Shown: in pieces, positions 855-36,538 of the stretch | How positions within the stretch are numbered: position 1 is the first letter of the stretch | Layout: every line of letters begins with the position of its first letter | Sequence record: NC_048023.1 | Strand: one strand, 5' to 3' | Length of the DNA: 39,747 bases | From: Escherichia phage Vec13 | Position numbers and translations under genes: made by a program | The notes under the pieces: generated by a model | Seen by the model: the letters and a program-made list of their open reading frames with translations, nothing else | Told to the model about the DNA's origin: nothing | Database searches by the model: none

Positions 855-912
855 GACTAACTACAGGGCCTTTGAGTCTACATCTGAAGGCCCTGACTGA
901 TAGTCACTAACA
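855..912 (+). promoter_or_regulatory. RNase III-like processing hairpin preceding first early gene
   Basis: Perfect 9-bp stem cagggcctt/aaggccctg with flanking conserved ctgactgatagtcactaac element shared with 1207..1260 and 1524..1577; T7 R0.3 lies at the equivalent place. Confidence 0.5.
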
Positions 913-929
913 ACCTAAGAGGATTCATT

Positions 930-1208
930 ATGAGACTGAACAAAGCTACAGCAGAAGCCTTTCGCAAGGAGCTTGAATCAAGATTATTGCGTGGAGTGAA
1001 GGAAGAAGCCGCGCGTTATAAAGAGAACGGTCTAACGTTCAAGCGCTTCATGTGGGATTGCTATCGTGGAGTGGGCCATAAGAAGTCGCAGGATATAATC
1101 ATCAGTAACAATACGGAAGTGCAAGTGGTGGGAGGATATATGACTAACGTGAAGGATTCACACATAGAGACCATGCTCAAGAATGCACTTAAAGATGTAG
1201 CCTACTAG
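930..1208 (+). CDS. Hypothetical early protein (92 aa), upstream of ocr
   Basis: ORF with SD aagagga 7 nt upstream of ATG; preceded by RNase III-like hairpin; no homolog recognised. Confidence 0.6.
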   Translation: MRLNKATAEAFRKELESRLLRGVKEEAARYKENGLTFKRFMWDCYRGVGHKKSQDIIISNNTEVQVVGGYMTNVKDSHIETMLKNALKDVAY

Positions 1209-1260
1209 TGATTAACTACAGGTCGTTAGACTGATAGCGGCCTGACTGATAGTCACTAAC
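1207..1260 (+). promoter_or_regulatory. RNase III-like processing hairpin (stem-bubble-stem)
   Basis: Inner stem caggtcg/cggcctg (one G-U), outer stem gtgatta/tagtcac; near-identical copy at 1524..1577. Confidence 0.5.
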
Positions 1261-1267
1261 TTAACGG

Positions 1268-1522
1268 ATGGACACTATGAAACACTTAAGCACAATCACT
1301 AATCACAATGAAGTATTCGTGAACACTAAAGGTTATGCGTGGATTCAGCTTAAAGAGATGAGAGGAGCGCGTCACCGTGTGGTAGTTCGCAAGGTCTCAA
1401 GCAAGCCGTTCAGCAACTACAGCGTAGATATTGTGCGTATAGACAACGAGACTTACCTGATAGACTCGCAGATAACCGTGAGTCCTACAGCGGGAATCTC
1501 AGCTCCTTATTTCGCTAACTGA
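1268..1522 (+). CDS. Hypothetical early protein (84 aa)
   Basis: ORF between two RNase III-like hairpins in the early region; alternative start at 1277; no homolog recognised. Confidence 0.55.
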   Translation: MDTMKHLSTITNHNEVFVNTKGYAWIQLKEMRGARHRVVVRKVSSKPFSNYSVDIVRIDNETYLIDSQITVSPTAGISAPYFAN

Positions 1523-1523
1523 G

Positions 1524-1577
1524 AGTGATTAACTACAGGTCGTTAGAATCATAGCGGCCTGACTGATAGTCACTAAC
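1524..1577 (+). promoter_or_regulatory. RNase III-like processing hairpin preceding ocr
   Basis: Second copy of the 1207..1260 element (differs at 3 positions in the loop). Confidence 0.5.
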
Positions 1578-1609
1578 ATACACACAAACAACTTTGAGAG
1601 GATATAACT

Positions 1610-1942
1610 ATGGAACGTAACGCTAACGCATACTATGAGCTGCTGGCTGCAACCGTTAAATGCTTCAACGAGCGTATTCAGTACGACGAAATAGCTGAAG
1701 GCGATGATTACCACGATGCGCTGCATGAGGTCGTAGACGGTAAGGTTCCGCACTATTACCACGAGATTTTCACGGTGATGGCTGCTGATGGTATAGACCA
1801 CGAGTTCGAAGACTCTGGGCTGATGCCTGAAACCAAGGACGTAACGCGTATACTACAAGCTCGCATCTATGAGGCGCTTTATAACGATGTGCTTAATAAC
1901 TCGGATGTGGTCTGGTTTGAGGCTGAAGAGGACTGCGAGTGA
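1610..1942 (+). CDS. ocr: Ocr-like DNA-mimic anti-restriction protein (T7 gp0.3 homolog)
   Basis: 110 aa; motif [43 protein letters not shown] closely matches T7 Ocr ([43 protein letters not shown]); acidic; SD gagagga. Confidence 0.9.
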
Positions 1943-2097
1943 TGGTAACTTATGGTCTCTGCCAGCACCATGTAGCCAACGCCCGGATTATGGTCAAGAC
2001 CGGGCAGTTAAACCATGATGCGGCTATGCGTCACCTGAAAGCGGTCTATGAGGGCCGCAAGCGTATACACGACAGTTTGCACGCTGAGGACAAGTAA
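1942..2097 (+). CDS. Small hypothetical early protein (51 aa)
   Basis: ATG overlaps ocr stop (tgATG); SD gagga 8 nt upstream; below ORF-track length cutoff; position analogous to T7 0.4-0.6 small genes. Confidence 0.35.
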   Translation: MVTYGLCQHHVANARIMVKTGQLNHDAAMRHLKAVYEGRKRIHDSLHAEDK

Positions 2098-2098
2098 C

Positions 2099-2224
2099 AT
2101 GTACCAGATAACTTATAGCAGTGAACAGGCGTTCTACGATGGGTGCTACGAGATGATGAAGCGCGGGGCTTGCTACGTGGCTAATCACCATAGCCTGACC
2201 ATAACGCTGACAGGTGGGTACTGA
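2099..2224 (+). CDS. Small hypothetical early protein (41 aa)
   Basis: Starts 1 nt after previous stop; SD gagga upstream; tightly packed. Confidence 0.3.
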   Translation: MYQITYSSEQAFYDGCYEMMKRGACYVANHHSLTITLTGGY

Positions 2225-2227
2225 GTG

Positions 2228-2265
2228 ATAGACGAGAGGTCATCGACTGATAGGTGGCCTCAAAG
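2228..2265 (+). promoter_or_regulatory. RNase III-like hairpin (aggtcat ... gtggcct motif)
   Basis: gaggtca pairs with tggcctc (one G-U); same aggtca/tggcct core as hairpins at 6084, 13374, 36491. Confidence 0.4.
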
Positions 2266-2295
2266 ATTACCACTTGCATTGATAGGAGAATTACT

Positions 2296-2463
2296 ATGAA
2301 ATTTACAATCATCGCACTTTACGTAACCATTATTCTATCTTGGCTTACTGCGGTGCTCACTGATGGTAACGCATTACGACTGGGCTGGCTGGCAGTGGAC
2401 ATTATATTCTCTCCGGTAGGTGTCGTGCGCGGCATCTTGATGTGGATTGGACTGGCGGGATAA
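2296..2463 (+). CDS. Small hydrophobic (2-TM) early membrane protein (55 aa from ATG at 2296)
   Basis: SD ataggag then ATG; sequence MKFTIIALYVTIILSWLTAVL...VGVVRGILMWIGLAG is two predicted TM helices; ORF track gives longer 2254 start without RBS. Confidence 0.55.
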   Translation: MKFTIIALYVTIILSWLTAVLTDGNALRLGWLAVDIIFSPVGVVRGILMWIGLAG

Positions 2464-2466
2464 ACT

Positions 2467-2667
2467 ATGAGTCTTGCACTATTGATAGCCATAGGCTATG
2501 GACTTATCGCCTACGTGCTGGTGAGAGACATCAACAAAGCGCGTAAAGTCTACAAATTAAACTATGTACGTCTGGGCCGCTGGACTGTACGTCAACCTAA
2601 CGGACGATTCATGCGTAACTTAGCGAACGTCTGGGATATAGCAACACTTGGGAGCAAACTACAATGA
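2467..2667 (+). CDS. Small early membrane protein (66 aa, N-terminal TM helix)
   Basis: MSLALLIAIGYGLIAYVLV hydrophobic N-terminus followed by basic tail; starts 4 nt after previous stop. Confidence 0.5.
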   Translation: MSLALLIAIGYGLIAYVLVRDINKARKVYKLNYVRLGRWTVRQPNGRFMRNLANVWDIATLGSKLQ

Positions 2668-2990
2668 ACAAGTCATACGGGATTAATCTGGTACACTCTA
2701 TGGATGCAGACATGCAAATGTTAAGCCTACTGGCTACCGGGTATCGTCACGGAACGTCAAGTCACTCCGCACGTCAACAGCAGGAGAGGGACCGGGTACT
2801 ACAAGCAAGACTCAGGGCGGAGGGCCATAAGTCCGAACTGATGTGTCTGGCGTATGGTGGACGACCAATCACTGACGATGGTAAACTTCTGGTCTCAGGC
2901 TGGAAGGCGATAGACCAACGGTCAACCATCAAGCACACGACTCATGGTGACTTCAGTCATCTTCACGCTAACCCTCTGATATGCAAGTGA
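2664..2990 (+). CDS. Hypothetical early protein (108 aa) occupying the position of T7 gene 0.7
   Basis: ORF overlapping previous stop by 4 nt; no protein kinase motifs; unknown function. Confidence 0.5.
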   Translation: MNKSYGINLVHSMDADMQMLSLLATGYRHGTSSHSARQQQERDRVLQARLRAEGHKSELMCLAYGGRPITDDGKLLVSGWKAIDQRSTIKHTTHGDFSHLHANPLICK

Positions 2991-2995
2991 TTCTG

Positions 2996-3018
2996 ACTTA
3001 ACTATCACTATAGGACTC
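2996..3018 (+). promoter_or_regulatory. Phage RNAP promoter immediately upstream of the RNAP gene
   Basis: cttaACTATCACTATAGGAct matches the 11-copy phage promoter consensus; +1 G at 3013. Confidence 0.7.
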
Positions 3019-3087
3019 AAGGTCTAAGACTCCAAGTGAAAGACCAAAGAGACTTTAAGTGAAAGACTAATAACAAGGACTTTAAGT

Positions 3088-5769
3088 ATGAGCGTCATCT
3101 CTATTGATAAACACGACTTCTCTGATGTGTCGAACGCCATTGAGCCGTTTAACCTGCTGGCCGACCACTACGGGCAAGACCTTGCAGTCAAACAGCTTCA
3201 GCTTGAGCATGAGGCATACACTGAAGGCGAGCGACGTTTCATCAAAAACCTTGAGCGACAGACTGAGCGCGGGGAACTGGCAGACAATCAGGTCGCCAAG
3301 CCTTTGATGCAGACTCTGGTTCCTAAGATTGCGCAAGCCGTCAAGGAGTGGCACGAAGGTCCAGACGGGAAGCTGTCAACCTCACGTCCGAGCGTAGCGT
3401 TCACCATGTTAAGCACTGAAGAGAAGGCCGTCAAGGACCGCTCTCTTCGCATCTCCTGCGAGTCTGCTGCGGTTATCATACTGAAGGTCATCCTCTCCAA
3501 GCTGGTCAAGCCTGAAGGTATACCGATTACACCGATGGCCTCCGCGATAGGTCGCACACTTGAGGATGAAATCCGATTCGGTCGCATTCGTGACAAGGAG
3601 AAGGAGCACTTCAAGAAGGCGATAGCTGATAACCTGAACAAGAGAGCCGGGGCATCATACAAGAAAGCCTACATGCAAGCGGTCGAGACATCCATGCTGG
3701 AGCAAGGCCAACTAGAAGATGCGTGGGGAACTTGGAGTCCGACCGAGGCTGTCCACGTTGGAATCAAGATGCTGGAGATTGTCATACAGTCAACACAACT
3801 GGTCGAGCTTAAGCGTTACGGTGCTGGCAATGCAGCGGCTGACGTTGAGATGGTCCACCTGTCAGACTTCTGGGTCAAGAAGATGGCACAACGCGGCTTC
3901 AGCCTTGCGGGTATCGCTCCAGTCTACCAACCTTGCGTAGTTCCACCTAAGCCGTGGACTGGTGTCGTAGGCGGTGGGTACTGGGCCAAAGGTCGCAGAC
4001 CATTACCACTGATTCGCTTAGGGTCTAAGTCTGCGGTGGCACGTTACGAAGACGTGTATATGCCTGAAGTATATGACGCTGTTAACATCATCCAGAATAC
4101 ACCTTGGAAAGTAAACAAGAAGGTTCTTGACGTGGTGAACATGGTCGAGAAGTTGAACAACACGCCTATTGATGACATCCCTCAGATGGAGCCACTGAAG
4201 CCTGAAGACTATGCGGGTGAGACTGAAGAGGAACTCAAGGCATGGAAGAAGGCTGCTGCTGGTATCTACCGCCGAGAGAAGGCCCGGCAGTCACGTAGAT
4301 TGTCACTGAGCTTTATCGTTAACCAAGCGAACAAGTTCTCTCAGTTCAAGGCCATCTGGTTCCCGTACAACATGGACTGGCGCGGTCGCGTCTACGCTGT
4401 GCCGATGTTCAACCCTCAGGGTAACGACATGCAAAAGGGTCTCCTGACTCTGGCAGTCGGTAAGCCTATTGGTGCTGATGGTTTCAAATGGCTGAAGGTC
4501 CACGGTGCAAACTGTGCGGGTATTGATAAAGTAACCTTCGAGGAGCGCATCAAGTGGGTGGAAGATAACCACGACAACATCATGGCTACCGCTAAGGCAC
4601 CGATGGACAGCATTGAGTGGTGGGGGAAGTTAGACTCTCCTTTCTGCTTCCTTGCGTTCTGCTTCGAGTATGCTGGCGTGATGCACCACGGATTGTCTTA
4701 CTCCTGCTCGCTGCCGATAGCTTTCGATGGGTCCTGCTCTGGGATTCAGCACTTCAGCGCTATGCTTCGTGACCACATCGGTGGACATGCAGTAAACCTG
4801 ACGCCTTCCGGTAAGGTCCAAGACATCTACCGCATCGTGTCTGACCGCATTGAGGAAGAGCTTAAAGTCCTGCTGGTTAACGGCACGGACAACGAGATGG
4901 TAACTCACGAGGACAAGAAAACTGGTGAGATTACCGAGCGTCTCAAGCTGGGGACACGAGAGCTGGCCCGTCAGTGGCTGACCTACGGTATGTCACGAAA
5001 GGTCACTAAGCGCTCAGTCATGACTCTGGCCTACGGGTCGAAAGAGTACGGATTCGCAGACCAAGTATACGAGGACATCGTGATGCCAGCGATTGACTCA
5101 GGGTCTGGCGCTATGTTCACTGAACCAAGCCAAGCATCTCGCTTCATGGCTAAGATGATTTGGGAAGCTGTGAGTGTGACCGTAGTTGCTGCGGTTGACG
5201 CGATGAAATGGCTTCAGGGTGCTGCCAAGCTGCTGGCGGCTGAAGTGAAGGACAAGAAGACGGGTGAAATCCTGAAGCCTTGCCTTCCGGTACACTGGGT
5301 CACACCTGATGGGTTCCCGGTCTGGCAGGAATACCGCAAGAAGGATACCACTCGTCTGAATCTGATGTTCTTAGGGTCATTCAACCTTCAGCCTACCGTC
5401 AACAAAGGCACGAAGAAAGAGCTGGATAAGCACAAGCAGGAGTCAGGCATTAGCCCGAACTTCGTCCACTCACAAGATGGTAGCCACCTCCGCAAGACTG
5501 TAGTCCATACTCACCGCAAGTATGGCGTGATGTCGTTCGCAGTGATTCACGATAGCTTCGGGACCATCCCGGCTGACGCTGAGTATCTGTTCCGTGGGGT
5601 CCGTGAGACTATGGTCGAGACCTACCGCGACAACGATGTGCTGCTTGACTTCTACGAGCAGTTTGAATACCAGCTTCACGAGAGCCAGCGCGATAAGTTG
5701 CCAGAGCTTCCGAAGAAAGGTAAACTGAATATCGAAGACATCTTGTCTTCAGACTTTGCATTCGCTTAA
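3088..5769 (+). CDS. Single-subunit DNA-directed RNA polymerase (T7 gp1 homolog)
   Basis: 893 aa; long colinear identity with T7 RNAP incl. FPYNMDWRGRVYAV, LPIAFDGSCSGIQHFSAMLRD, VHSQDGSHLRKTV, HDSFGT, C-terminal FAFA. Confidence 0.98.
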   Translation: MSVISIDKHDFSDVSNAIEPFNLLADHYGQDLAVKQLQLEHEAYTEGERRFIKNLERQTERGELADNQVAKPLMQTLVPKIAQAVKEWHEGPDGKLSTSRPSVAFTMLSTEEKAVKDRSLRISCESAAVIILKVILSKLVKPEGIPITPMASAIGRTLEDEIRFGRIRDKEKEHFKKAIADNLNKRAGASYKKAYMQAVETSMLEQGQLEDAWGTWSPTEAVHVGIKMLEIVIQSTQLVELKRYGAGNAAADVEMVHLSDFWVKKMAQRGFSLAGIAPVYQPCVVPPKPWTGVVGGGYWAKGRRPLPLIRLGSKSAVARYEDVYMPEVYDAVNIIQNTPWKVNKKVLDVVNMVEKLNNTPIDDIPQMEPLKPEDYAGETEEELKAWKKAAAGIYRREKARQSRRLSLSFIVNQANKFSQFKAIWFPYNMDWRGRVYAVPMFNPQGNDMQKGLLTLAVGKPIGADGFKWLKVHGANCAGIDKVTFEERIKWVEDNHDNIMATAKAPMDSIEWWGKLDSPFCFLAFCFEYAGVMHHGLSYSCSLPIAFDGSCSGIQHFSAMLRDHIGGHAVNLTPSGKVQDIYRIVSDRIEEELKVLLVNGTDNEMVTHEDKKTGEITERLKLGTRELARQWLTYGMSRKVTKRSVMTLAYGSKEYGFADQVYEDIVMPAIDSGSGAMFTEPSQASRFMAKMIWEAVSVTVVAAVDAMKWLQGAAKLLAAEVKDKKTGEILKPCLPVHWVTPDGFPVWQEYRKKDTTRLNLMFLGSFNLQPTVNKGTKKELDKHKQESGISPNFVHSQDGSHLRKTVVHTHRKYGVMSFAVIHDSFGTIPADAEYLFRGVRETMVETYRDNDVLLDFYEQFEYQLHESQRDKLPELPKKGKLNIEDILSSDFAFA

Positions 5770-5783
5770 CAGGAGAGAGAGCT

Positions 5784-5999
5784 ATGAAATTTGCACACAA
5801 GCATACTGGCGTTAATGGTGGGACTCAAATCGTGACCGTAACAGAACACAACGGCAAGGGTCTGGTGAAGACCACGGTCATCCCTACCGAGATGTCCAAG
5901 CAGCTTAACATCCCGTTCAAGACTCTTGTAGATCTGGTCGAGTCCAGCCACGAGAAGTACCTGAAGGACGCAGTGTCAAAACTGGAGCAGACCAAATGA
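5784..5999 (+). CDS. Hypothetical protein (71 aa) between RNAP gene and phi1.1-like promoter
   Basis: SD aggaga 7 nt upstream of ATG; no T7 counterpart recognised at this location. Confidence 0.5.
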   Translation: MKFAHKHTGVNGGTQIVTVTEHNGKGLVKTTVIPTEMSKQLNIPFKTLVDLVESSHEKYLKDAVSKLEQTK

Positions 6000-6063
6000 C
6001 AGACCTACAGTTGCTGGCCTTGTGGCTGGGAGCAATTGCAGTATTCACTTTAATCCAACGCAG

Positions 6064-6086
6064 AAGAGGTTAACCTAAACTATCAC
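6064..6086 (+). promoter_or_regulatory. Phage RNAP promoter (phi1.1-like; candidate primary replication origin region)
   Basis: cctaaACTATCACTATAGGatt; in T7 the phi1.1A/B promoters with adjacent AT-rich DNA form the primary origin. Confidence 0.8.
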
Positions 6087-6128
6087 TATAGGATTAGACT
6101 CAAGGTCATGACTCAAAGTCGTGGCCTT
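6084..6128 (+). promoter_or_regulatory. RNase III-like hairpin (conserved tagactcaaggtcat ... gtggccttcatgatta)
   Basis: One of three near-identical elements (also 13374..13418, 36491..36538); aaggtca pairs with tggcctt with a G-U. Confidence 0.55.
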
Positions 6129-6169
6129 CATGATTAACCCTAAATAAACACTACTGGAGATTTAACCGT

Positions 6170-6349
6170 ATGTATCAGAATACTATCAACTTCGAGCGCA
6201 TCCGTGAACGTCAGCAGACTGAAGGTTACATTCCTAAGGGCCGCAAGCTGAACAAGACTAAACGTGGAGGCGGCATCAAAGGTGCTTTCCGTAACGCTGA
6301 AGGTAAAGACTCTATGGTCAACCAAGAGAAATACTTCGTAGGAGCATAA
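6170..6349 (+). CDS. gp1.1-like small basic protein (59 aa)
   Basis: Contains KGRKLNKTKR as in T7 gp1.1; SD ggag; below ORF-track cutoff. Confidence 0.65.
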   Translation: MYQNTINFERIRERQQTEGYIPKGRKLNKTKRGGGIKGAFRNAEGKDSMVNQEKYFVGA

Positions 6350-6353
6350 CTCT

Positions 6354-6617
6354 ATGGGCCGACTTTATAGTGGCAACCTCAACGCTTTCAGAGCAGCGTG
6401 TAACAGGCTTTATCAGTTAGACTTCGCTGTTATATCTCAGGAGTTTCAAGACCATGTGTCACACCAAGAGTGCATGAAACTCAGGGTGGAGGACAGAACT
6501 GGTAACATCTTCGCGCTTGAGTCCTTCGCACACTACGATGACGACGTGCTGTATAATACTGCAACCGACTACCTCAACGGTCTCGCTGACCAACTAGACA
6601 CATGGAGCAAAGCATAA
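6354..6617 (+). CDS. gp1.2-like protein (host dGTPase inhibitor homolog)
   Basis: 87 aa; MGRLYSGNLNAFRAA...LDFAVI...KLRVEDRTGN matches T7 gp1.2 MGRLYSGNLAAFKAA...IRLRIEDRSGN. Confidence 0.85.
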   Translation: MGRLYSGNLNAFRAACNRLYQLDFAVISQEFQDHVSHQECMKLRVEDRTGNIFALESFAHYDDDVLYNTATDYLNGLADQLDTWSKA

Positions 6618-7639
6618 TGACAACTATCAAAACTAACCCGCACCGCGCTGTAGATTACTCTGAGTCTGGCATTAAGAAGGCACTGGAAGCAGCCGGGTCT
6701 CTGGAAGCTGAAGTGAAGTACGATGGTGTCCGGCTGAACCTTCCGGTGCTGCGAGAAGGTGAGACATACTGGTTAAGCCGTGAGTCTAAACCGCTGCCAG
6801 CACTGGAGTGGATGAACTCTGAGTTAGGGAATGCGTGGACTCAAGCTGACTGGCGATGGTTCCTGCGTCAAGCTGGATACGAAGGCGTGGGACTGATGAT
6901 TGACGGAGAGGTAATGGTCAAAGGCGTTGACTTCAACACATCATCGGGTCTCATCCGAACGAAGTGGCTGAAGCCTAGCAACGAGGAGTTCGCTGAATGC
7001 TATCCTGGACGTGGCAAGAAGGTCCCGTTCTGGGTCGCCCGGTCACGACTCAAGGTTGTGGTCTACGGCGTCGTCGATATGACAACCATTGCTGACCCGA
7101 AAGCCGAAGGTCCTATCCATAGCGTCACACGCCTGAAGGCCGAAGCTATCGTCCCTCTCCTTCAGAAATACTTCCCGGAAATCGACTGGGTTCTCTCTGA
7201 GAGTCATACAGTGTTCAACCTTGAGTCTCTTCGTGATTTGTACGAGGAGAAGCGATCAGATGGACATGAAGGTCTGGTAGTCAAGGACCCACTGGGCAAA
7301 TACAAGCGTGGTAAGAAGTCTGGTATGTGGAAGATGAAGCCAAGTGAAGAGGCAGATGGTCACGTTGTTCGCCCGGTGTGGGGAACAGAAGGTCTAGCCA
7401 ACGAAGGCATGGTCATCGGCTTTGACGTTATGCTCGAGAACGGGATGGAGGTCTCCGCAACTAACATTAGTCGCGCCCTTATGTCCGAGTTCACGGAGAA
7501 CGTTAAGTCAGACCCTGACTACTACAAGGGGTGGGCTTGCCAGATTACCTACATGGAGGAGACACCAGATGGCTCATTGCGACATCCCTCGTTCGACCAG
7601 TGGCGTGGAACTGAGGATAATCCTACAGTCAAGATTTAA
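6617..7639 (+). CDS. ATP-dependent DNA ligase (T7 gp1.3 homolog)
   Basis: MTTIKTNP start (T7 MMNIKTNP); catalytic EVKYDGVR lysine motif; GHEGLVVKDP, KRGKKSGMWKMKP, WACQITYMEETPDGSLRHPSF conserved; preferred start 6617 rather than track 6602. Confidence 0.95.
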   Translation: MTTIKTNPHRAVDYSESGIKKALEAAGSLEAEVKYDGVRLNLPVLREGETYWLSRESKPLPALEWMNSELGNAWTQADWRWFLRQAGYEGVGLMIDGEVMVKGVDFNTSSGLIRTKWLKPSNEEFAECYPGRGKKVPFWVARSRLKVVVYGVVDMTTIADPKAEGPIHSVTRLKAEAIVPLLQKYFPEIDWVLSESHTVFNLESLRDLYEEKRSDGHEGLVVKDPLGKYKRGKKSGMWKMKPSEEADGHVVRPVWGTEGLANEGMVIGFDVMLENGMEVSATNISRALMSEFTENVKSDPDYYKGWACQITYMEETPDGSLRHPSFDQWRGTEDNPTVKI

Positions 7640-7678
7640 AGTGGACGAAAGGTAGCCTTGAGAGATTCATTATAATGT

Positions 7679-7720
7679 CAACCCAGTGGTCTTAGGACTG
7701 CTGGGTTTCTTTGCTTTGTG
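7679..7720 (+). terminator. Putative early (host RNAP) terminator, TE-like
   Basis: Stem acccag/ctgggt followed by T-rich tttctttgctttgtg directly after ligase gene, where T7 TE lies. Confidence 0.45.
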
Positions 7721-7753
7721 CTAGCAAGCTATCGTCTGGGCCACCAGATAGAC

Positions 7754-7776
7754 CCTAAGCTATCACTATAGGACAA
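7754..7776 (+). promoter_or_regulatory. Phage RNAP promoter (variant, G at -13)
   Basis: ctaagCTATCACTATAGGaca; +1 G at 7771. Confidence 0.7.
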
Positions 7777-7802
7777 CCCTAACCGACCAAAGGAGAAACC
7801 TT

Positions 7803-8057
7803 ATGTCTAAAAACTTAATGTTCAACCGATTTACTCGAAGCTTCCACCTGTCGCATAGCCCATTCAGCTTCCATAAAGCTAATCAACCATTACCCCGCTT
7901 TGGTAAGACAGTGGCTCTGTCTCCTACAGTTCATGCGCTAGTCACCCGCAAGTCTATGCTGAATGCTATGGATAAAGAACAAATTGATGTACCTGTGGTC
8001 GTTACAAAATGGCCTCGCATTAAGCTGGCACTTCAGGTAATTAAGGAGGCGCTCTGA
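7803..8057 (+). CDS. Hypothetical protein (84 aa), gene 1.4-1.6 region
   Basis: SD aaaggag; follows phage promoter. Confidence 0.55.
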   Translation: MSKNLMFNRFTRSFHLSHSPFSFHKANQPLPRFGKTVALSPTVHALVTRKSMLNAMDKEQIDVPVVVTKWPRIKLALQVIKEAL

Positions 8058-8392
8058 TGACATACTGTGATAGCACCACATACTGTGAAGCATGTAATGG
8101 TGACGACCGCTTCCCGCACGTTGGTAAACTTGTAGGTAACAAACTACAAGAAATTGATGGCGTCCGCAAGCCGTCCCACTATAAGGTCTTTGATGGCGTG
8201 GAATCCATTGAGATTATCGCACGGTCAATGACTGTGAGTGAGTTCCGTGGGTTCTGCATGGGTAACGTCCTGAAGTATCGACTTCGGGCTGGTAAGAAGT
8301 CCGAGCTGGCGACTATGGAGAAGGACATGGCGAAAGCTGAGTTCTATGGTGAACTTTACGAGAAACATAAGGACAAGTGTTATGACGCATGA
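8057..8392 (+). CDS. gp1.7-like protein (nucleotide kinase homolog, short form)
   Basis: 111 aa; KPSHYKVFDGVESIEIIARSMTVSEFRGFCMGNVLKYRLRAGKKSELA...KHKDKCY matches C-terminal half of T7 gp1.7. Confidence 0.8.
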   Translation: MTYCDSTTYCEACNGDDRFPHVGKLVGNKLQEIDGVRKPSHYKVFDGVESIEIIARSMTVSEFRGFCMGNVLKYRLRAGKKSELATMEKDMAKAEFYGELYEKHKDKCYDA

Positions 8393-8609
8393 AGAACTTA
8401 AAGCTGTAGGGGTGAAGCGTAGAGCGCTCAGTTTTTACCGAGCATACAAGGCGCTACGTAAGGGTATGTTAGCGTTCTCATTAGGACACAGTGAGTATTG
8501 TGACTATGACCTCCTACCGTTTGCTTATATGAAGACTCCTAGTATGATTATTAGGGTAGAGGAGTATGACCATTCTGACGACTGTGTAATGGTGAACCGA
8601 TATGCTTAA
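8382..8609 (+). CDS. Hypothetical protein (about 75 aa; gene 1.8 position)
   Basis: ORF track 8346..8609; internal ATG at 8382 has SD aagga and avoids long overlap with gp1.7. Confidence 0.4.
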   Translation: MTHEELKAVGVKRRALSFYRAYKALRKGMLAFSLGHSEYCDYDLLPFAYMKTPSMIIRVEEYDHSDDCVMVNRYA

Positions 8610-8696
8610 ACCGAGTGAGTGGTGCCGGGAGATGTACGAGAAGACTCTCAACCCGGACTACATTACGTTATACAACCAATGGAAGGAGCGTGGTCT

Positions 8697-8855
8697 ATGA
8701 CTGACGTAGAAAAGAAATACATCGTGGAGCTTGAGGGTCGCGTTCAGTCATTCGAGGTTCCGGTGTACGCAAAGTCTCTTGAAGAGGCTACCCTGAAGTC
8801 CCAAGAGTATGAGGACGCTGGGTTTGTGGTCGGACGGATTCGTCCTGAGACCTAA
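8697..8855 (+). CDS. gp2-like inhibitor of host RNA polymerase
   Basis: [15 protein letters not shown]...[10 protein letters not shown] resembles T7 gp2 HSFEVPIYAETLDEA...AGFEVTRVRP; start at internal ATG 8697 with SD aaggag (track ORF 8619..8855). Confidence 0.7.
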
Positions 8856-8873
8856 ACTATCACTGTAGGACAG
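8851..8873 (+). promoter_or_regulatory. Phage RNAP promoter variant (phi2.5-like; A to G at -3)
   Basis: cctaaACTATCACTgTAGGaca immediately upstream of SSB gene. Confidence 0.55.
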
Positions 8874-8912
8874 ACGTCCAGTTCGTAACTTTAAATTAGG
8901 AGATTTACACCA

Positions 8913-9611: not shown

Positions 9612-10063
9612 TGGCCCAATGGTCTGCAAAACGGGGGCACTCTGTGGGTGCCTACCGCTCTGGACTTGAAGCCAAGAACCAGCAGTGGCTGGAACAGAAC
9701 GGCGTCAAAGCGGAGTACGAAAGCCATTATATCAACTATGTGATTCCGGCTTCCGACCACAAGTACACACCAGATTTTATCCTTCCCAACGGTATCATCG
9801 TGGAGACCAAAGGTATCTTCGATAGTGATGACCGTAAGAAGCACCTTCTGGTACGAGAACAGCACCCAGAGTTAGACATCCGGTTCGTGTTCTCAAGTTC
9901 CCGCTCCAAGTTATACAAAGGGTCTCCGACCACGTATGGCGCATGGTGCGAAAAGAACGGCTTTAAATTTGCCGATAAATTCATCCCGGTTGAGTGGCTG
10001 CGAGAGGCGACTGTACGTCTGCCTTCAGGTATACTCATCCCCAAGAAGAAAGGAGTTAAGTGA
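9611..10063 (+). CDS. Endonuclease I, Holliday junction resolvase (T7 gp3 homolog)
   Basis: 150 aa; YTPDFILPNGIIVETKG, DDRKKHLLVREQHPELDIRFVFSSSRSKLYKGSPTTYG match T7 gp3. Confidence 0.95.
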   Translation: MAQWSAKRGHSVGAYRSGLEAKNQQWLEQNGVKAEYESHYINYVIPASDHKYTPDFILPNGIIVETKGIFDSDDRKKHLLVREQHPELDIRFVFSSSRSKLYKGSPTTYGAWCEKNGFKFADKFIPVEWLREATVRLPSGILIPKKKGVK

Positions 10064-10966: not shown

Positions 10967-10990
10967 TAAACTCTAAAGGAGAATAACTTA

Positions 10991-11206
10991 ATGATTAAAC
11001 TTATCGAATTTCTAGGTCGTCTGGTGGTGCGTGGTTATCGTCGTGCTGCGGTACTGGAACGAAAGGTAGAAAAGAAGACTGCTGATGGCGCGGCTGATGC
11101 GGCTGCTCTGGCTGACAAGCTGACCATCGCGTCACTGGAAGCTGGCATGAAGGCTCGTCAGGCTGATACCAAAGCTGACCAGTTGGCTCAGTTCTTCAAA
11201 GACTAA
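10991..11206 (+). CDS. Hypothetical protein (71 aa, Ala-rich, predicted helical)
   Basis: Strong SD aaaggag; position of T7 gene 3.8 but no HNH motifs. Confidence 0.5.
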   Translation: MIKLIEFLGRLVVRGYRRAAVLERKVEKKTADGAADAAALADKLTIASLEAGMKARQADTKADQLAQFFKD

Positions 11207-11223
11207 ACTATCACCTTAGGGAT
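11201..11223 (+). promoter_or_regulatory. Possible weak phage promoter variant
   Basis: gactaaACTATCACctTAGGGa; two mismatches at -5/-4 relative to consensus; T7 has phi3.8 at this location. Confidence 0.3.
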
Positions 11224-11274
11224 GGGACCATGAGTCCTGTCCCTTTGTTCGCATTTGTGACTAAGGAGTGACCG

Positions 11275-11454: not shown

Positions 11455-11461
11455 GGAGTGA

Positions 11462-13165
<1,704 letters not shown>

Positions 13166-13207
13166 TCGGGACATCGCTGACTATAAGAATTTTACGGAGG
13201 ACCGTTA

Positions 13208-13372
13208 GTGTTAAAGAAACTTAAAGCTCGATACCACATGTTCATGTACAAATGGTGGAGCGATGAAGCAACCTGCCTGTCGAACATTCTGGGAGACCAG
13301 CGGTTCAACTCTGAGGCATGGAAGAAAGCTAACCGGAAGTTCATGTATCACTTCTTGCGTACAGACTTCTAG
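13208..13372 (+). CDS. Small hypothetical protein (54 aa, GTG start), gene 4.3/4.5 position
   Basis: Strong SD acggagga 7 nt upstream of GTG; below ORF-track cutoff. Confidence 0.35.
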   Translation: MLKKLKARYHMFMYKWWSDEATCLSNILGDQRFNSEAWKKANRKFMYHFLRTDF

Positions 13373-13373
13373 G

Positions 13374-13418
13374 TCTAGACTCAAGGTCATTCATAGCGAG
13401 TGGCCTTTATGATTAGAC
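13374..13418 (+). promoter_or_regulatory. RNase III-like hairpin (conserved element copy 2)
   Basis: tctagactcaaggtcat ... gtggcctttatgattagac; same motif as 6084 and 36491 copies. Confidence 0.55.
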
Positions 13419-13436
13419 TAAAGCGGAGGATTAACC

Positions 13437-17399: not shown

Positions 17400-17525
17400 T
17401 TTACTGGGCCGGACTTCTGGCCATTTACTGCATGTATAAGTGGTTCGGGTCTAACAACCGTCCTAAACACTGAGTCTAACCGATAGTCATATCCTATCAA
17501 TCCAACAGTCATCCATAGGTGAAAT

Positions 17526-17548
17526 ACTAAACTATCACTATAGGGACT
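17526..17548 (+). promoter_or_regulatory. Phage RNAP promoter (phi6.5-like)
   Basis: ctaaACTATCACTATAGGGact; +1 G at 17543. Confidence 0.85.
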
Positions 17549-17609
17549 TTAGGACCTAAGATATGACTATAAGATAGACTTTAGTCTTAACTTAAAGAGG
17601 AGATTCAAG

Positions 17610-21713: not shown

Positions 21714-21736
21714 ACTAAACTATCACTATAGGGAGA
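21714..21736 (+). promoter_or_regulatory. Phage RNAP promoter (phi10-like, full consensus incl. GGGAGA)
   Basis: ctaaACTATCACTATAGGGAGAcc; best match to T7-family class III promoter downstream GGGAGA; directly upstream of major capsid gene. Confidence 0.9.
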
Positions 21737-21838
21737 CCAAGAGACAGACTCAAGGTTTCCCTATTACTTCAGTCCATACGGATTGGGCGTACAGTAAGTA
21801 ATATACTTTATCTTTCAATTGAATAGGAGAATTATCAT

Positions 21839-26476: not shown

Positions 26477-26500
26477 CTTATTGAAGGGCCTATAGATTTA

Positions 26501-26523
26501 CCTTAACTATCACTATAGGGACT
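26501..26523 (+). promoter_or_regulatory. Phage RNAP promoter (phi13-like), flanked by 12-bp inverted repeat
   Basis: ccttaACTATCACTATAGGGact; aagggcctatag (26484..26495) and ctataggccctt (26522..26533) are perfect reverse complements. Confidence 0.85.
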
Positions 26524-26552
26524 ATAGGCCCTTAAGGTTATAAGGAGACTTT

Positions 26553-27595: not shown

Positions 27596-27606
27596 GAGGA
27601 GGACTA

Positions 27607-29889: not shown

Positions 29890-29893
29890 CATA

Positions 29894-32800: not shown

Positions 32801-33781
32801 GGTACGACCAACTACCTGTTAGATGCTGGACGTCAAGGCTTCCTGTCTGACATCGTGGAGCATAGCCTGACTGGTAGTAAGCGTAAGTTCGATGACCGCT
32901 GGCTTAAGACCGCTGGTATCTCTGACGAGCAGTGGAAGGGAATTAAGTCCCTCATCCGTGAGTCAGTGACGCGTGGTCCAGACGGGACGTACACCATCAA
33001 GGATAAGAAGGCGTTCAGTCAGGACCCAAGGGCTATGGACCTCTGGCGTATGGGTGACACCATCGCTGATGAGACCCTGCTCCGTCCCCACAAGCTGAGC
33101 AACATGGACGCCAAGGCTTATGGTCCGATAGCGAAGACTGTCTTGCAGTTTAAGAACTTCGTTATCAAGTCTATCAACGGTCGAACCATGCGTACCTTCT
33201 ACAACGCCACCAAGAACAACCGAGCTATGGATGCTGCACTGTCCACGGTTATGTCTATGGGTCTGGCTGGGATGTACTACATGGCTCAGGCGCACATCAA
33301 GGCTTACGCTATGCAGGACGGTCGTGACCGTGAGTACCTGAAGCAAGCCCTGAACCCGACGATGATTGGCTATGCGGCTCTATCCCGTAGCTCCCACTTG
33401 GGTGGACCTCTTGGGGTCGCCAACATTCTGGGTGGCATCGCTGGGTATGAGGACACTAAGTTACTCCGCTCGTCTATCCTTCCTCGCTCACCTACCGAGA
33501 AGACGGAGAAGCCAATCGCCTTTGGTGCTGCTTCCAGTGGTCCGGTAATGAATGTGGTCGGCAACTTCCTTGAGCAGGTCCCGGCTTTCGGCTATGCTGC
33601 TAACGTTGGTGCTACGGCTTACAACTTGGCGGGATACCTCAAGGCTGATACCCGTGTCAACGAGCGAGACTACATGACCGGGATGTATAACACGTTCCGT
33701 GAACTTGTACCGAATGACCCGATTACCCAGAAGTTGCTGCTTGGAACGTTTGAGGAGCAAGGCATCCACATCAAGGACTAA
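29894..33781 (+). CDS. Internal virion (core/ejectosome) protein gp16 homolog with divergent N-terminal domain
   Basis: 1295 aa; from about residue 200 colinear with T7 gp16 (STWFGF, VITGGSPQNL, LRSPTGMQSGASGK, NPAMFG, TYVPHVY, NSFLEARNLFDSD, PHKLS, ALSRSS); N-terminal about 200 aa lack the T7 lytic transglycosylase motifs. Confidence 0.95.
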   Translation: MATRGIRNNNPGNIRVSKDQWEGMTGDDGAFVTFDSPESGVRALGKNLLSYGRRGYDSIEKIINRWAPPNENDTKAYIDSVVAATGIPATQSLDLSDPDTLSSLAQAISFHETGSRYDPEVYQKGVARALNGITPKTPPVSANVFDALTEGLKAKPKVALGENLPTAAGLNIEGQAPEAPNESFGEMFYKATGETVQEREDRSTWFGFGAATEAEVKNSMVGVAIRAGQTEDSLDVIGDVFNPTRWNNHKWTREELDQIRNAGVMPQYYGVITGGSPQNLTELINLALENQKLDQEKAKAGTGAQLAAGVIGAGVDPLTYVPIAGQVGKGGKLVNKMFTVAAQSGALAGVSEMARTSVAGGDAHVAEAILGGALFGGGMTAIADGLGRALGRNTNEFAGPATRLEARETARNVDGQDLSRLPIQEGEQTFSHQGVKFADVPNEPGSVRLEDGSILIGENPLNPKTRQVFDEVIEPERAAAGVNLGGLTEIGLKLLRSENPEIRGVAADLVRSPTGMQSGASGKIGTTASDVFERLRAVDHRFYNDIDDAVTEALKDPYFQTAFWRDSGAFRQDIYQRVSMAIEDGSGNLKAELTPGELKVYDLLKNQFDAKREMMENPAMFGRPDAQSIFPGSRFKGTYVPHVYSNQMKELYIKELGSPEALQEAIKKSWLTSYASRPEVKKRVDEALLEADPTLTPEGLAAAVDKYANDKAYGISHTEQFERSSVMEENINGLVGLENNSFLEARNLFDSDMSIVLPNGQTFSVNNLREWDMDKIVPAYNRRVNGDIAIMAGTGKTTKDMKDLVETMMNKAGDDGKLKGEVSTLRDTLKILTGRARRDGADDAAFATVMRTMTDLSFFAKNAYMGVQNLTEIGGMLARGNVRALLHGVPIFRDLAFRNKKVGASEIKDLHNVIFGKELDDSIRPSKQDVIDRLRSYSDLGRGTATALGTAKYYTGELAVRSPFTKVLNGTTNYLLDAGRQGFLSDIVEHSLTGSKRKFDDRWLKTAGISDEQWKGIKSLIRESVTRGPDGTYTIKDKKAFSQDPRAMDLWRMGDTIADETLLRPHKLSNMDAKAYGPIAKTVLQFKNFVIKSINGRTMRTFYNATKNNRAMDAALSTVMSMGLAGMYYMAQAHIKAYAMQDGRDREYLKQALNPTMIGYAALSRSSHLGGPLGVANILGGIAGYEDTKLLRSSILPRSPTEKTEKPIAFGAASSGPVMNVVGNFLEQVPAFGYAANVGATAYNLAGYLKADTRVNERDYMTGMYNTFRELVPNDPITQKLLLGTFEEQGIHIKD

Positions 33782-33799
33782 ACTATCACTATAGGAAAC
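33777..33799 (+). promoter_or_regulatory. Phage RNAP promoter (phi17-like)
   Basis: ctaaACTATCACTATAGGaaacg; +1 G at 33794. Confidence 0.85.
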
Positions 33800-33846
33800 G
33801 GGAGGCGCTACCATAGGTCTCCCTTTAATTCATAACAGGAGGCATA

Positions 33847-35877
33847 ATGTCCACGATTACACAATTCCCTTCAGGAAGCACTCAGTACAGGATTGAGTTC
33901 GACTACCTAGCCAGAACGTTTGTTGTTGTTACGCTGGTGAATAGCTCTAACCCTACCCTGAACCGTGTACTGGAAGTTGGTCGAGATTACCGATTCCTTA
34001 ATCCAACGATGATTGAGATGTTGGTTGACCAATCAGGTTTCGACATCGTTCGCATTCACCGTCAGACTGGAACTGACTTAGTGGTAGACTTCAGGAATGG
34101 CTCAGTGTTGACAGCTAGTGACCTGACAAATTCAGAGCTTCAGGCTATCCATATTGCAGAAGAAGGTCGAGACCAAACGGTTGACTTAGCGAAGGAATAT
34201 GCCGATGCTGCTGGTAGCTCTGCTGGCAACGCTAAGGATAGCGAGGACGAAGCACGCCGAATCGCTGAGAGTATCAGGGCGGCTGGTCTAATTGGTTATA
34301 TTACCCGTCGCTCCTTCGAGAAAGGCTACAACGTTACAACATGGAGCGAGGTCCTGCTATGGGAAGAGGATGGTGATTATTACCGCTGGGATGGTACGCT
34401 TCCAAAGAACGTTCCTGCTGGTTCAACTCCTGAAACTTCCGGTGGGATTGGATTAGGTGCGTGGGTTAGTGTTGGTGATGCTGCTTTAAGAAGTCAGATT
34501 TCAAACCCGGAAGGGGCAATACTCTACCCAGAATTACAGATGGCGCGCTGGCGAGATGAGGGTGATGTTCGCGGATGGGGTGCTAAAGGTGATGGTTCTG
34601 CGGATGATACAGAGGCTTTCAAGGCAGCACTGGCAACAGGAAAGAATCTATATATCCCCGTTGGTATATACATCATTAAAGAGACTTTGTACTTTAAGAA
34701 CCAAGTTATTAAAGGTGGGGGAATATCTCCATCACCAAGTCTTGGTACAATCCTAGCAATCTCTCACAATGAAGCAGCTTTTAAGTATGACGTTAACTCT
34801 GGATACTCCATGGGTGGCTACTTAGGCGGTTTCTTCATTGATTATGGTGAGAACAAGCCAGACAACTATGGTGGTCGCAAAGGTATTGATATTGGTGATG
34901 CATCGCAGACAGCATGGCCTTCACAATTTATCATTGAGAACATCATAGTACGTGGTGCGTACTTTGGTATTCATGACGTGACAGGGGCTTTTCAGTATAC
35001 CATGCGTAACGTATTGGCGATTAATTGCTGGGAAGGTTTCCGTAAGCATATTGGTACTACAGTCCTAATGGATACATGCTACGCACTTAATTGTTATCAG
35101 GCGTTCAATTTTGCAAACGTGTACAACATGACTATGAACAATTGTGCAATGGACGGCTGTAATGATATACAAGGTCTACAGGCTTTTGATATTAACAACT
35201 GTAAAGGTATGGTAATAAATGGCATGTACAGCGAGAACTGTGAGATTCATCATAATGGACATGCCTCTATATATATTCATGGGGACTCAACAGTAACACT
35301 TAACGGATATGCACTACATTCCCACAAAGTTCTGGCTAGTTCTGGGGAGGCTTACTTCTTACGAGCACATGAAAGTTCTCGCGTTACTGTTGATGGTATC
35401 TTCTTCGGGGAAGACCTGACGTCTACTGCTGTATTCATGTACCCAGTCCTGTCTTCTGGGGATGCTAGAGTTAAGCTTGGAACTACTAGATTGAAGTTGT
35501 GGACTGGTGCTACGGGTGGGGCGTCACTGGCTGCACTAGGTAACAGTTTGATTGAGTATGACAACACAGTCTTTGTTCCAACAGTCACGGTCGGATGGTG
35601 TAGCAACAACGGAGTTGTAGCCAAAGGTACTCTTGCAGTTAACACTACGCTTGAACCAGGTGCTGACCTGAATGCCGGTAATATTACCCTCACTGGTGAC
35701 TACAAGCCAACTAAGGGGGATGTGCTTGTGTATGGTGCTACCTTTGATGTTAAGTCATGTTCAATTATTCTCAAGCCAATAGGGGAGAATTTATGTAATG
35801 TGTACATTAAGAACTTAAGTGCAGGTGGTAGTGCTACTCTTCTTGGTGACTTGATGGTACAGGCCATCCGACGCTAG
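33847..35877 (+). CDS. Tailspike/tail fiber: T7 gp17-like N-terminal adaptor plus pectate-lyase-like beta-helix (putative polysaccharide depolymerase)
   Basis: 676 aa; N-terminus FDYLARTFVVVTLV, DYRF, IHIAEE match T7 gp17; from about residue 240 WGAKGDGSADDTEAFKAAL and repetitive G/N/C-rich stretches typical of pectate lyase superfamily tailspikes. Confidence 0.9.
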   Translation: MSTITQFPSGSTQYRIEFDYLARTFVVVTLVNSSNPTLNRVLEVGRDYRFLNPTMIEMLVDQSGFDIVRIHRQTGTDLVVDFRNGSVLTASDLTNSELQAIHIAEEGRDQTVDLAKEYADAAGSSAGNAKDSEDEARRIAESIRAAGLIGYITRRSFEKGYNVTTWSEVLLWEEDGDYYRWDGTLPKNVPAGSTPETSGGIGLGAWVSVGDAALRSQISNPEGAILYPELQMARWRDEGDVRGWGAKGDGSADDTEAFKAALATGKNLYIPVGIYIIKETLYFKNQVIKGGGISPSPSLGTILAISHNEAAFKYDVNSGYSMGGYLGGFFIDYGENKPDNYGGRKGIDIGDASQTAWPSQFIIENIIVRGAYFGIHDVTGAFQYTMRNVLAINCWEGFRKHIGTTVLMDTCYALNCYQAFNFANVYNMTMNNCAMDGCNDIQGLQAFDINNCKGMVINGMYSENCEIHHNGHASIYIHGDSTVTLNGYALHSHKVLASSGEAYFLRAHESSRVTVDGIFFGEDLTSTAVFMYPVLSSGDARVKLGTTRLKLWTGATGGASLAALGNSLIEYDNTVFVPTVTVGWCSNNGVVAKGTLAVNTTLEPGADLNAGNITLTGDYKPTKGDVLVYGATFDVKSCSIILKPIGENLCNVYIKNLSAGGSATLLGDLMVQAIRR

Positions 35878-36035
35878 AAATGTACGCATGGATTCGCTGA
35901 GGTGGTTATCCATGAAGAGGGTGAGGAGTGGGGTGTAGATGTTAGAAGGTTGTGGAGGTAGAGGCTAACTACACGCTAACCAACGTAGGGTAACAACTTT
36001 GGGTCACGGACGACCCGCTTTAAACTGGAGGTTTT

Positions 36036-36230
36036 ATGATTGAGTTAGACTTCAAGAATGAGGTCCTTAAAGCCTCTCCTATAGTCGGGACCGCTGCGGC
36101 TGATGGTGCCAGTCGGTTCTTCTTCGGGCTCACACTTAACGAATGGTTCTACGTTGCAGCTATCGCGTACACCGTTGTCCAGATTGGTGTGCTAGTCTAC
36201 AAAACGATTAAAGGAGGTGGTAAAACATGA
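36036..36230 (+). CDS. Holin (T7 gp17.5 homolog)
   Basis: 64 aa; AAPIVGT, FFFGLTLNEWFYVAAIAYTVVQIG match T7 gp17.5. Confidence 0.9.
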   Translation: MIELDFKNEVLKASPIVGTAAADGASRFFFGLTLNEWFYVAAIAYTVVQIGVLVYKTIKGGGKT

Positions 36231-36490
36231 CGCAGATGGACTTAGAGAAGTTCCTCTTGATGCTAGATACTGAACGTGCTCGACTCATGCTGCAAGACCT
36301 GCGGGATGACACTAAGCGTTCACCTCAGCTTTACAACGCCATTGAGAAGCTACTGGCTCGTCACAACTTCGTGCTAAGCAAGGTGTCTGTCGACGAGAAG
36401 ACTCTGGCTGATATGGAGGCCCTGAACGCAGAGTACGATAAGGTGCTCTCGGCTACGGAAGATAATGACACCGGGTATGGTGTTCAATAA
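36227..36490 (+). CDS. Terminase small subunit (T7 gp18 homolog)
   Basis: 87 aa ORF immediately upstream of Rz-like and TerL in T7 order; SD aaaggagg. Confidence 0.8.
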   Translation: MTQMDLEKFLLMLDTERARLMLQDLRDDTKRSPQLYNAIEKLLARHNFVLSKVSVDEKTLADMEALNAEYDKVLSATEDNDTGYGVQ

Positions 36491-36538
36491 GTGTTAGACT
36501 CAAGGTCATTACTATATGTAGTGGCCTTTATGGTTAAC
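36491..36538 (+). promoter_or_regulatory. RNase III-like hairpin (conserved element copy 3, R18.5-like)
   Basis: gtgttagactcaaggtcat ... gtggcctttatggttaacac; outer arms gtgtta/taacac complementary. Confidence 0.55.

Follow-up and report, generated by a model that had tools for sequence, protein, structure and literature searches.

Intergenic hairpins of Escherichia phage Vec13 as candidate RNase III processing sites of the T7 type

Hairpins between the genes of Vec13

The window analysed here, the 39,747-bp sequence of Escherichia phage Vec13 (NC_048023.1), is a complete genome of the T7 group, genus Kayfunavirus (K1F-like). It carries a terminal direct repeat of 179 bp and 11 copies of the phage promoter TAAACTATCACTATAGG. 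Its gene order is that of phages K1F and EcoDS1, and over the first 8 kb it shows 94-95% identity with Escherichia phages Peacock and K1F. Processing of T7-type phage mRNAs by host ribonuclease III (RNase III) has been established since the 1970s-80s. A preliminary description of the Vec13 sequence had pointed to stem-bubble-stem hairpins at seven junctions between genes, proposed as candidate RNase III sites and divided into a family A of three members and a family B of three members plus one degenerate copy. Their full extents, together with the open reading frames (ORFs) that follow them, are as follows.

853-907, + strand: A1, at the position of T7 site R0.3; lower stem 853-859/901-907, upper stem 864-873/886-895, extending further with a bulge; predicted cut after 898; then a 92-amino-acid ORF (phrog_9817) at 930; fold z = -5.57.
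1208-1256, + strand: A2; begins on the stop codon of ORF 930-1208; predicted cut after 1247; precedes ORF 1268/1277-1522 (81-84 amino acids, phrog_10124, the same as K1F gp0.2); fold z = -6.26.
1525-1573, + strand: A3; 95% identity to A2; predicted cut after 1564; before ocr/gene 0.3 (1610-1942); fold z = -5.32.
2225-2273, + strand: B0, the copy described as degenerate; upper stem GAGGUCAUC/GGUGGCCUC; predicted cut after 2264; the next gene is a 55-amino-acid ORF at 2296; fold z = -3.55.
6091-6140, + strand: B1, the R1.1 equivalent; starts at about +1 of phage promoter 6076-6092; predicted cut after 6131; precedes a gene 1.1 homologue (6170) and gene 1.2 (6354); fold z = -3.68.
13372-13419, + strand: B2, the R4.7 equivalent; begins on the upstream stop codon; predicted cut after 13410; before gene 5, DNA polymerase (13437); fold z = -4.26.
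36491-36540, + strand: B3, the R18.5 equivalent; between gene 18 (stop at 36490) and gene 18.5 (36592, Rz-like gp18.5); predicted cut after 36531; fold z = -5.93.

All seven hairpins were present where they had been placed, with edges that had been drawn slightly short or shifted. For instance, the span 6084..6128 first given for B1 takes in promoter bases and omits the 3′ arm. The genes named downstream of the B sites (1.1, 5 and 18.5) were found there, and the three early genes said to follow the A sites are the phrog_9817 ORF, the gp0.2 homologue and ocr/gene 0.3. The gene 1.1 homologue is so named in EcoDS1; its match to T7 gp1.1 is weak (E=0.003). Of the in-frame ATGs at 1268 and 1277 in the ORF that follows A2, the second is the likelier start, because both the PHROG match and the K1F gp0.2 annotation begin there.

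We then considered the motifs of the two groups. The 19-mer of family A, CTGACTGATAGTCACTAAC, occurs exactly three times in the window (893, 1242 and 1559), against an expectation of 0.03 even when three mismatches are allowed; A1 thus has a 3′ arm identical to those of A2 and A3. The 3′ motif of family B, GTGGCCTTTATGATTAG, is found three times at up to two mismatches (0.07 expected): exactly at 13400 only, as ..CTTCATGATTAA in the copy at 6121 and as ..TTTATGGTTAA in the copy at 36521. The looser pattern AGGTC-N8-30-GGCCT gave nine matches for 1.57 expected, a number reached in none of 100 shuffles. The pairing of AAGGUCA with UGGCCUU through a U-G wobble had been correctly described.

RNA folding, which had been proposed as a check, was carried out. 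Every element folds into a lower stem, an asymmetric internal loop and an upper stem. The rounded z-scores are -5.6, -6.3 and -5.3 for A1-A3, -3.6 for B0 (folded as 2223-2276) and -3.7, -4.3 and -5.9 for B1-B3; for each of the seven, none of 200 shuffles was as stable as the element itself. The + strand folds more strongly in six of the seven hairpins, by a wide margin in five and marginally in B1. This preference is due to the G-U pairs, of which each hairpin has three or four. Raw folding energy in sliding windows was left out as evidence, since coding regions reach similar values and the sites do not stand out by it.

Relation to the RNase III sites of T7 and T3

The hairpins are homologues, in sequence and in structure, of the RNase III sites of T7, and they are also homologous to stem-loops annotated 'RNase III recognition site' in the T3 RefSeq record. 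The proposal made in the preliminary description is thereby supported, with cleavage assigned by homology. T7 sites R0.3, R0.5, R1, R1.1, R1.3, R4.7 and R18.5 fold alike and carry CUCAAGGUC..GUGGCCUUUAUGAUU, which is the family B consensus. Like B1-B3, the canonical T7 sites (R0.3, R0.5, R1.1, R1.3, R4.7 and R18.5) have a lower stem, an asymmetric internal loop and an upper stem of 10-12 bp. In both, the base of the upper stem reads AAGGUC..GGCCUU with the U-G wobble, and the loop reads ACUC on the 5′ side and UAU^GA on the 3′ side (^, cut). The combination of a AAGGUCAU/GUGGCCUU helix with the UAU^GA loop is that of T7 R1.1, R0.5, R4.7 and R18.5, and the upper stem and internal loop of B2 are nearly identical to those of R0.5.

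Family A (ACAGGUC..GGCCUGA) matches the variant found in R1 of T7 and T3 (CAGGUC..GGCCUGAAU^AGG), with which it has in common the C-G pair that closes the upper stem, a CCUGA 3′ flank and an ..ACUAAC leader. This variant occurs once in T7 and T3, before the RNA polymerase gene, whereas in Vec13 the early region opens with three copies of it. Unlike R1 of T7 and T3, family A has an invariant 19-nt 3′ arm, and the first position of its distal box is G-C instead of A-U.

An alignment of the seven window sites with the seven T7 sites yielded a common structure, with compensatory changes in 11 of 17 pairs. The division into two separate families did not survive this comparison: judged from the sequences, the hairpins form a single family with two sub-variants, A and B, since all 14 share the alignment and the structure and match one covariance model.

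This covariance model (R1, called here the joint model to keep it apart from the T7 site of that name) was built from the seven window and seven T7 sites. In the window it gave exactly seven matches at 52-67 bits, the next one, at 16 bits, being the antisense image of a true site. The single scores were 52.5 bits for A1, which is itself in the training set, 65.4 for A2, 64.2 for A3, 53.9 for B0, 62.6 for B1, 60.7 for B2 and 67.0 for B3. On held-out T7 sequence, the joint model recovered R6.5 at 48 bits. On held-out T3 sequence, it recovered eight of the ten annotated RNase III stem-loops, with no other T3 match at E<=1 and nothing else above 18 bits; the two missed, R3.8 and R13, are short non-canonical hairpins. 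Because the window sites match the joint model by construction, a second model (R2) was built from T7 and T3 sites only. Six of the seven hairpins came out as its top six window matches, scoring 23-43 bits (E 8e-10 to 6e-4), and the next match stands at 14 bits. B3 was the top match of this model too (43.5 bits), followed by B2 (36.1 bits), B1 (31.9 bits), A2 (29.7 bits, E=9e-6), A3 (27.2 bits) and B0 (23.4 bits, E=6e-4). At gathering thresholds, no Rfam family matches the window elements.

The T7 records carry no RNase III features. For T7 we therefore used cleavage coordinates which we take to be 890, 1468, 3138, 5887, 6448, 11203, 13892, 18563, 27281 and 36856, and which reportedly go back to Dunn & Studier 1983. 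All seven canonical coordinates fall on one alignment column, 3 nt 3′ of the upper stem, and the position in R1.1 is consistent with the 28-nt product, the upper stem-loop, reported earlier (PMC1540722). These two agreements support the coordinates used. With the T7 cuts on a single column, the window cuts are predicted at the corresponding seven places, from 898 in A1 to 36531 in B3.

In order to extend the comparison, IMG/VR was scanned with an exact pattern. This returned at least 120 stretches, mostly from 38-44-kb contigs, and in 80 of them the joint model located 144 sites. Among 113 distinct relatives, in an alignment that was fitted to the model and hence leans towards the structure, 95.7% of cells are paired (77% in shuffles) and both partners have changed in 16 of 17 pairs. 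The loci had been retrieved by a pattern in which part of the upper stem is fixed; their covariation score is 0.54, compared with 0.19 in shuffles and at most 0.12 with slid partners; the observed values were reached in 0 of 500 shuffles. The internal loop is almost invariant (ACUC on the 5′ side, (U/C)AUGA on the 3′ side), and its invariant residues would fit a sequence-specific cleavage context. Six other Kayfunaviruses (K1F, EcoDS1, GW1, Ro103C3lw, Kc166A and EcpYZU01) have sites at the same syntenic positions. Orthologues compensate: in B2, before gene 5, the seventh upper-stem pair changes from A-U to G-C, and the B3 orthologues likewise carry compensatory substitutions. B0 is kept in K1F, EcoDS1 and other Kayfunaviruses.

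The hairpins were next set against the recognition rules of RNase III. The determinants described for T7 R1.1 are a helix of at least 11 bp, a 4-bp proximal box, a 2-bp middle box and a UA/UG distal box; in the proximal box, position 1 is G-C, position 2 A-U or U-A, position 3 A-U, and position 4, next to the cut, is never G-C (PMC1540722). In the window, the upper stem measures 10-12 bp plus a loop-adjacent position and the lower stem 7-9 bp, which agrees with the length rule (at least 11 bp from cut to loop, about two turns). B1, B2 and B3 are identical to R1.1 in all three boxes. Positions 1, 2 and 4 of the proximal box follow the rules in seven of seven sites, with A-U at position 2 and a mismatch at position 4.

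Besides the two leanings of the comparative data given above, several observations weigh against reading these hairpins as RNase III sites. Position 3 of the proximal box is C-G in A1-A3 and G-C in B0, and the distal box of A1-A3 deviates from the optimal UA/UG. A1 was missed by the T7/T3-only model; its upper stem is longer and different, and its lower stem, internal loop and 3′ arm are common to A2 and A3, the 3′ arm being common also to T7 R0.3, at whose position A1 sits. No homologue of the T7 0.7 kinase was found in the whole window (tblastn, E<=1). In T7, the 0.7 protein kinase stimulates RNase III; in the related Kayfunavirus GW1, a kinase is annotated. Position-3 substitutions in the minimal R1.1 substrate weaken binding (PMC1540722). 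Finally, T7 can do without RNase III when grown under standard conditions (PMC4858673), and the contribution of the sites to fitness may therefore be modest.

Because of these box deviations, A1-A3 and B0 may be cut less efficiently than the other sites. One could go further and suppose that RNase III or some other protein binds certain hairpins, above all type A and B0, and leaves them uncut, or that these act as stability or translation elements independent of RNase III cleavage, as a barrier to 3′ exonucleases or by sequestering or positioning the ribosome-binding site. Indeed, substrates that bind RNase III yet resist cleavage have been described (PMC1540722), the elements in question are those that depart from the optimal proximal and distal boxes, and B0 scores lowest with the independent model. 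However, R1 of T7 and of T3, natural sites listed as RNase III sites, have the same C-G at position 3, the loop residues around the cut (..U^GA..) are kept in seven of seven sites, and the cleavage-blocking G-C at position 4 occurs in none of them. We therefore judge this alternative unlikely. By analogy with T7, we hold with a probability of about 0.9 that all seven hairpins serve as T7-type signals for processing by the host RNase III.

Placement and proposed processing

The sites are tightly placed in the order stop codon, hairpin and next ribosome-binding site. In five cases the start of the hairpin overlaps the upstream stop codon or lies no more than 2 nt from it, and the leaders from the predicted cut to the next start codon would measure 20-60 nt. 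A layout equivalent to that of T7 had been proposed, and it holds in part. A1 is the first site after the host promoters, like R0.3; B1 occupies the R1.1 setting of phage promoter, hairpin and genes 1.1 and 1.2, a promoter-then-hairpin arrangement also seen in T7 and T3; B2 lies directly before gene 5, as does T3 R4.7; and B3 lies between genes 18 and 18.5, like R18.5. The R1 and R1.3 positions have no site, and for the sites first placed at 1207, 1524 and 2228 T7 offers no exact match in position.

Before gene 1.3, the model search found no site in the window. Before gene 1, the candidate fold was no better than shuffles (z=-0.1) and neither model matched. Promoter 2998-3014 lies directly upstream of the phage RNA polymerase gene and is followed by a GGACUCAAGGUC half-motif; the stretch 2998-3087 contains GGACTCAAGGTC, the 5′ half of the RNase III motif, as well as repeats of AAGTGAAAGAC and GACTTTAAG. 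The half-motif may be a decayed R1 site or a coincidence.

Five of the hairpins (A1, A2, A3, B0 and B1) lie between the left-end host-promoter region and a terminator-like element:

7680-7707, + strand: TE-like intrinsic terminator hairpin with T-run, reported by a terminator scan of 1-8000; directly after the ligase gene.

The EcoDS1 record annotates TE at the matching position, and this hairpin is likely the end (TE) of the early host-polymerase transcript containing A1-B1. In T7, an early precursor of about 7,000 nt is cut at five sites (PMC4858673). The same scan bears on whether the hairpins are themselves intergenic intrinsic terminators or attenuators. They are stable intergenic stem-loops, and one record (MZ726794) labels a homologous A-type element 'terminator'. 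Yet their stems are interrupted by an internal loop of 4-5 x 5 nt, and there is no promoter of their own between hairpin and gene for the essential downstream genes, DNA polymerase and 18.5/19. None of the seven hairpins is followed by a U-tract, and the scan reported none of A1, A2, A3, B0 and B1 although it did report 7680-7707. For these last two reasons we exclude terminators, to which we assign a practically negligible probability.

Processing by RNase III may be pictured as follows; cleavage as such, its exact positions and what it does to stability and translation are extrapolated from T7 biochemistry. Host RNA polymerase, and later the phage RNA polymerase, would produce long rightward polycistronic transcripts. 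In the + strand RNA, the 7-9-bp lower stem and the 10-12-bp upper stem of each hairpin would stack into about two helical turns. E. coli RNase III would bind, recognising the upper stem by the pairs of its proximal, middle and distal boxes. The asymmetry of the internal loop would limit the enzyme to a single cut, on the 3′ side of the loop and 3 nt past the upper stem, in the context ..CCUU-UAU^GAUU.. for type B and ..CCUG-ACU^GAUAG.. for type A. The upstream mRNA would retain the hairpin as a protective 3′ end, and the downstream mRNA would receive a short leader of defined length, 20-60 nt.

As compared to T7, Vec13 lacks a site before gene 1 or 1.3 as well as the 0.7 kinase, has different lower-stem sequences, and has extra sites before two small early ORFs and before the 55-amino-acid ORF. 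Cellular RNase III substrates of E. coli and the lambda sites are usually cut on both strands, unlike the single cut predicted for the Vec13 hairpins, and they have no sequence in common with the hairpins. Going by general background and by PMC1540722, the E. coli rRNA precursor stems, the rnc and pnp leaders and the phage lambda sites share with them about two turns of double-stranded RNA and the same host enzyme.

As for annotation, the T7-type processing is textbook matter, and the Vec13 hairpins are unannotated new members in a K1F-like genome. Among 111 GenBank phage records with an A-type element, none labels an RNase III site; one (MZ726794) has 'terminator', and in the others the element is unannotated or lies under a called 'hypothetical protein'. 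Public records such as MZ726794, MK903279 and NC_011042 leave the hairpin homologues unannotated, overlap them with 'hypothetical protein' ORFs or call them 'terminator'. The K1F and EcoDS1 records list promoters and terminators and no RNase III sites, and the annotated EcoDS1 ORF 1493-1636 begins inside that phage's B0-type hairpin (1489-1546). A literature search on RNase III with K1F, Kayfunavirus and Autographiviridae, which did not extend to the K1F genome paper, returned nothing specific. The covariance model and the predicted cuts offer a direct route to annotating mRNA boundaries in K1F-like phages, a group employed in phage therapy and engineering, where such sites affect the expression of inserted genes.

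Further candidate sites, possible early-gene cassettes and other elements

Three further elements lie at positions of the non-canonical late sites R3.8, R6.5 and R13 of T7 and T3, to which they correspond as a 5′-terminal hairpin of R3.8 type and as repeats spanning the phi6.5 and phi13 promoters.

11218..11246 (hairpin 11218-11244), + strand: R3.8-type hairpin AGGGAUGGGAC-CAUGA-GUCCUGUCCCU, then CCCUUU^GUUCGC; predicted cut after 11246.
17473..17580, + strand: phi6.5 inverted repeat with 24-nt arms 17473-17496/17557-17580 spanning the phi6.5 promoter (17528-17544).
26484..26533, + strand: phi13 inverted repeat AAGGGCCUAUAG/CUAUAGGCCCUU, perfect over 12 bp, with arms 26484-26495/26522-26533 spanning the phi13 promoter (26503-26519).

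The R3.8-type hairpin lies at the 5′ end of transcripts from promoter 11204-11220. It has CCCTTTGTTCGCATT in common with T7 R3.8, aligns with the annotated T3 R3.8, and shows compensation in 4 of 10 pairs across eight phages. The phi6.5 repeat, the second-longest inverted repeat of the genome, folds at the T7/T3 R6.5 position into stems of 6 and 11 bp with a 4x4 bubble between them. One compensatory swap, A-U to U-A, is seen in GW1 and Ro103C3lw. We regard it as a candidate RNase III site with moderate confidence. The phi13 repeat lies at the T7/T3 R13 position; in relatives its outer 3-4 pairs break and no covariation was seen. Since these pairs break, support for it is weak, and it is a candidate held with low to moderate confidence. 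The phi6.5 and phi13 repeats differ in sequence from R6.5 and R13 of T7 and T3 and are not recognised by the covariance models, neither of which matched the phi6.5 repeat. If all three candidates were real, the genome would have ten sites, as T7 does.

The early region was then compared among Kayfunaviruses over the following loci.

Cassette comparison: window 849-1620; L001 697-1120; L005 891-995; L142 20985-21330.

The more small ORFs precede ocr, the more A-type hairpins there are: a single hairpin without an extra ORF in EcoDS1, two hairpins with gp0.2 in K1F, two with an unrelated 58-amino-acid ORF in EcpYZU01, and three with two ORFs (phrog_9817 and the gp0.2 homologue) in Vec13. Across these phages, three mutually unrelated small ORFs thus occupy the slot between the first hairpin and ocr, each then followed by its own A2-type hairpin, and the ocr leader always comes after the last A-type hairpin. 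Homology breaks exactly after the invariant 3′ arm ..CACTAAC, that is, after ..CTGACTGATAGTCACTAAC. The tracking of the counts and the position of these breakpoints suggest gain and loss of cassettes: the A-type hairpins might double as portable junctions, with units of leader, ORF and hairpin exchanged by recombination within the hairpin. On the present comparison of sequences we put this forward tentatively and lean somewhat towards doubting it. If it were true, acquired early genes, possibly anti-defence genes, would arrive equipped for RNase III processing and independent translation. This pattern is the sole part of the analysis that might add something new; the rest should not surprise a specialist, and its value lies mainly in annotation.

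The exact coincidence of cassette junctions with hairpins also raises the possibility that the main role of these pseudo-palindromes lies in the DNA, as cruciform or hairpin targets in recombination by endonuclease I, replication or packaging, the RNA structure being incidental. Pseudo-palindromes have been proposed to promote recombination between T3 and T7 (PMC3276506). Moreover, the palindromes of T7 RNase III sites and similar hairpins of a T7-like vibriophage trigger the Lamassu/DdmABC system of Vibrio cholerae at the DNA level (PMC11707656). Because this system senses them, such palindromes may be a liability in some hosts. However, the three or four G-U pairs of each hairpin become A-C mismatches on the other strand, where the fold is much weaker in five of seven cases, and this pairing and strand bias make a purely DNA-level role unlikely. 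In addition, every site lies on the strand that is transcribed and in a gap that is not translated, the single-stranded residues at the known RNA cut position are conserved, and the homology of the sites to biochemically defined RNA substrates explains the hairpins fully. Taken together, these points leave the DNA-level explanation very improbable, and processing of the mRNA by RNase III is retained as the preferred reading.

Some other structures were seen in the genome. The most stable 64-nt fold (145-208, -32.3 kcal/mol) has an outer stem of 12 bp and an inner stem of 7 bp. It lies across the inner end of the 179-bp terminal repeat and may for that reason serve in packaging or at the concatemer junction. 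Two inverted repeats precede the right terminal repeat, at 39365-39405 and 39414-39507: a perfect one of 11 bp, CTAAGGTCAGT/ACTGACCTTAG, and an imperfect one of 29 nt. The transcript from the pre-capsid promoter starts with a GGGAGACC..GGUUUCCC hairpin (window 21731-21761), which has ACUCAAGG in its loop and resembles the leader stem-loop of T7 phi10. Finally, the gene 17 ORF (tail fibre or spike, 33847-35877) encodes 676 amino acids, compared with 1064 for the K1F endosialidase (L001 32661-35855); the receptor specificity of Vec13, and hence the capsule type of its host, therefore probably differs from that of K1F.

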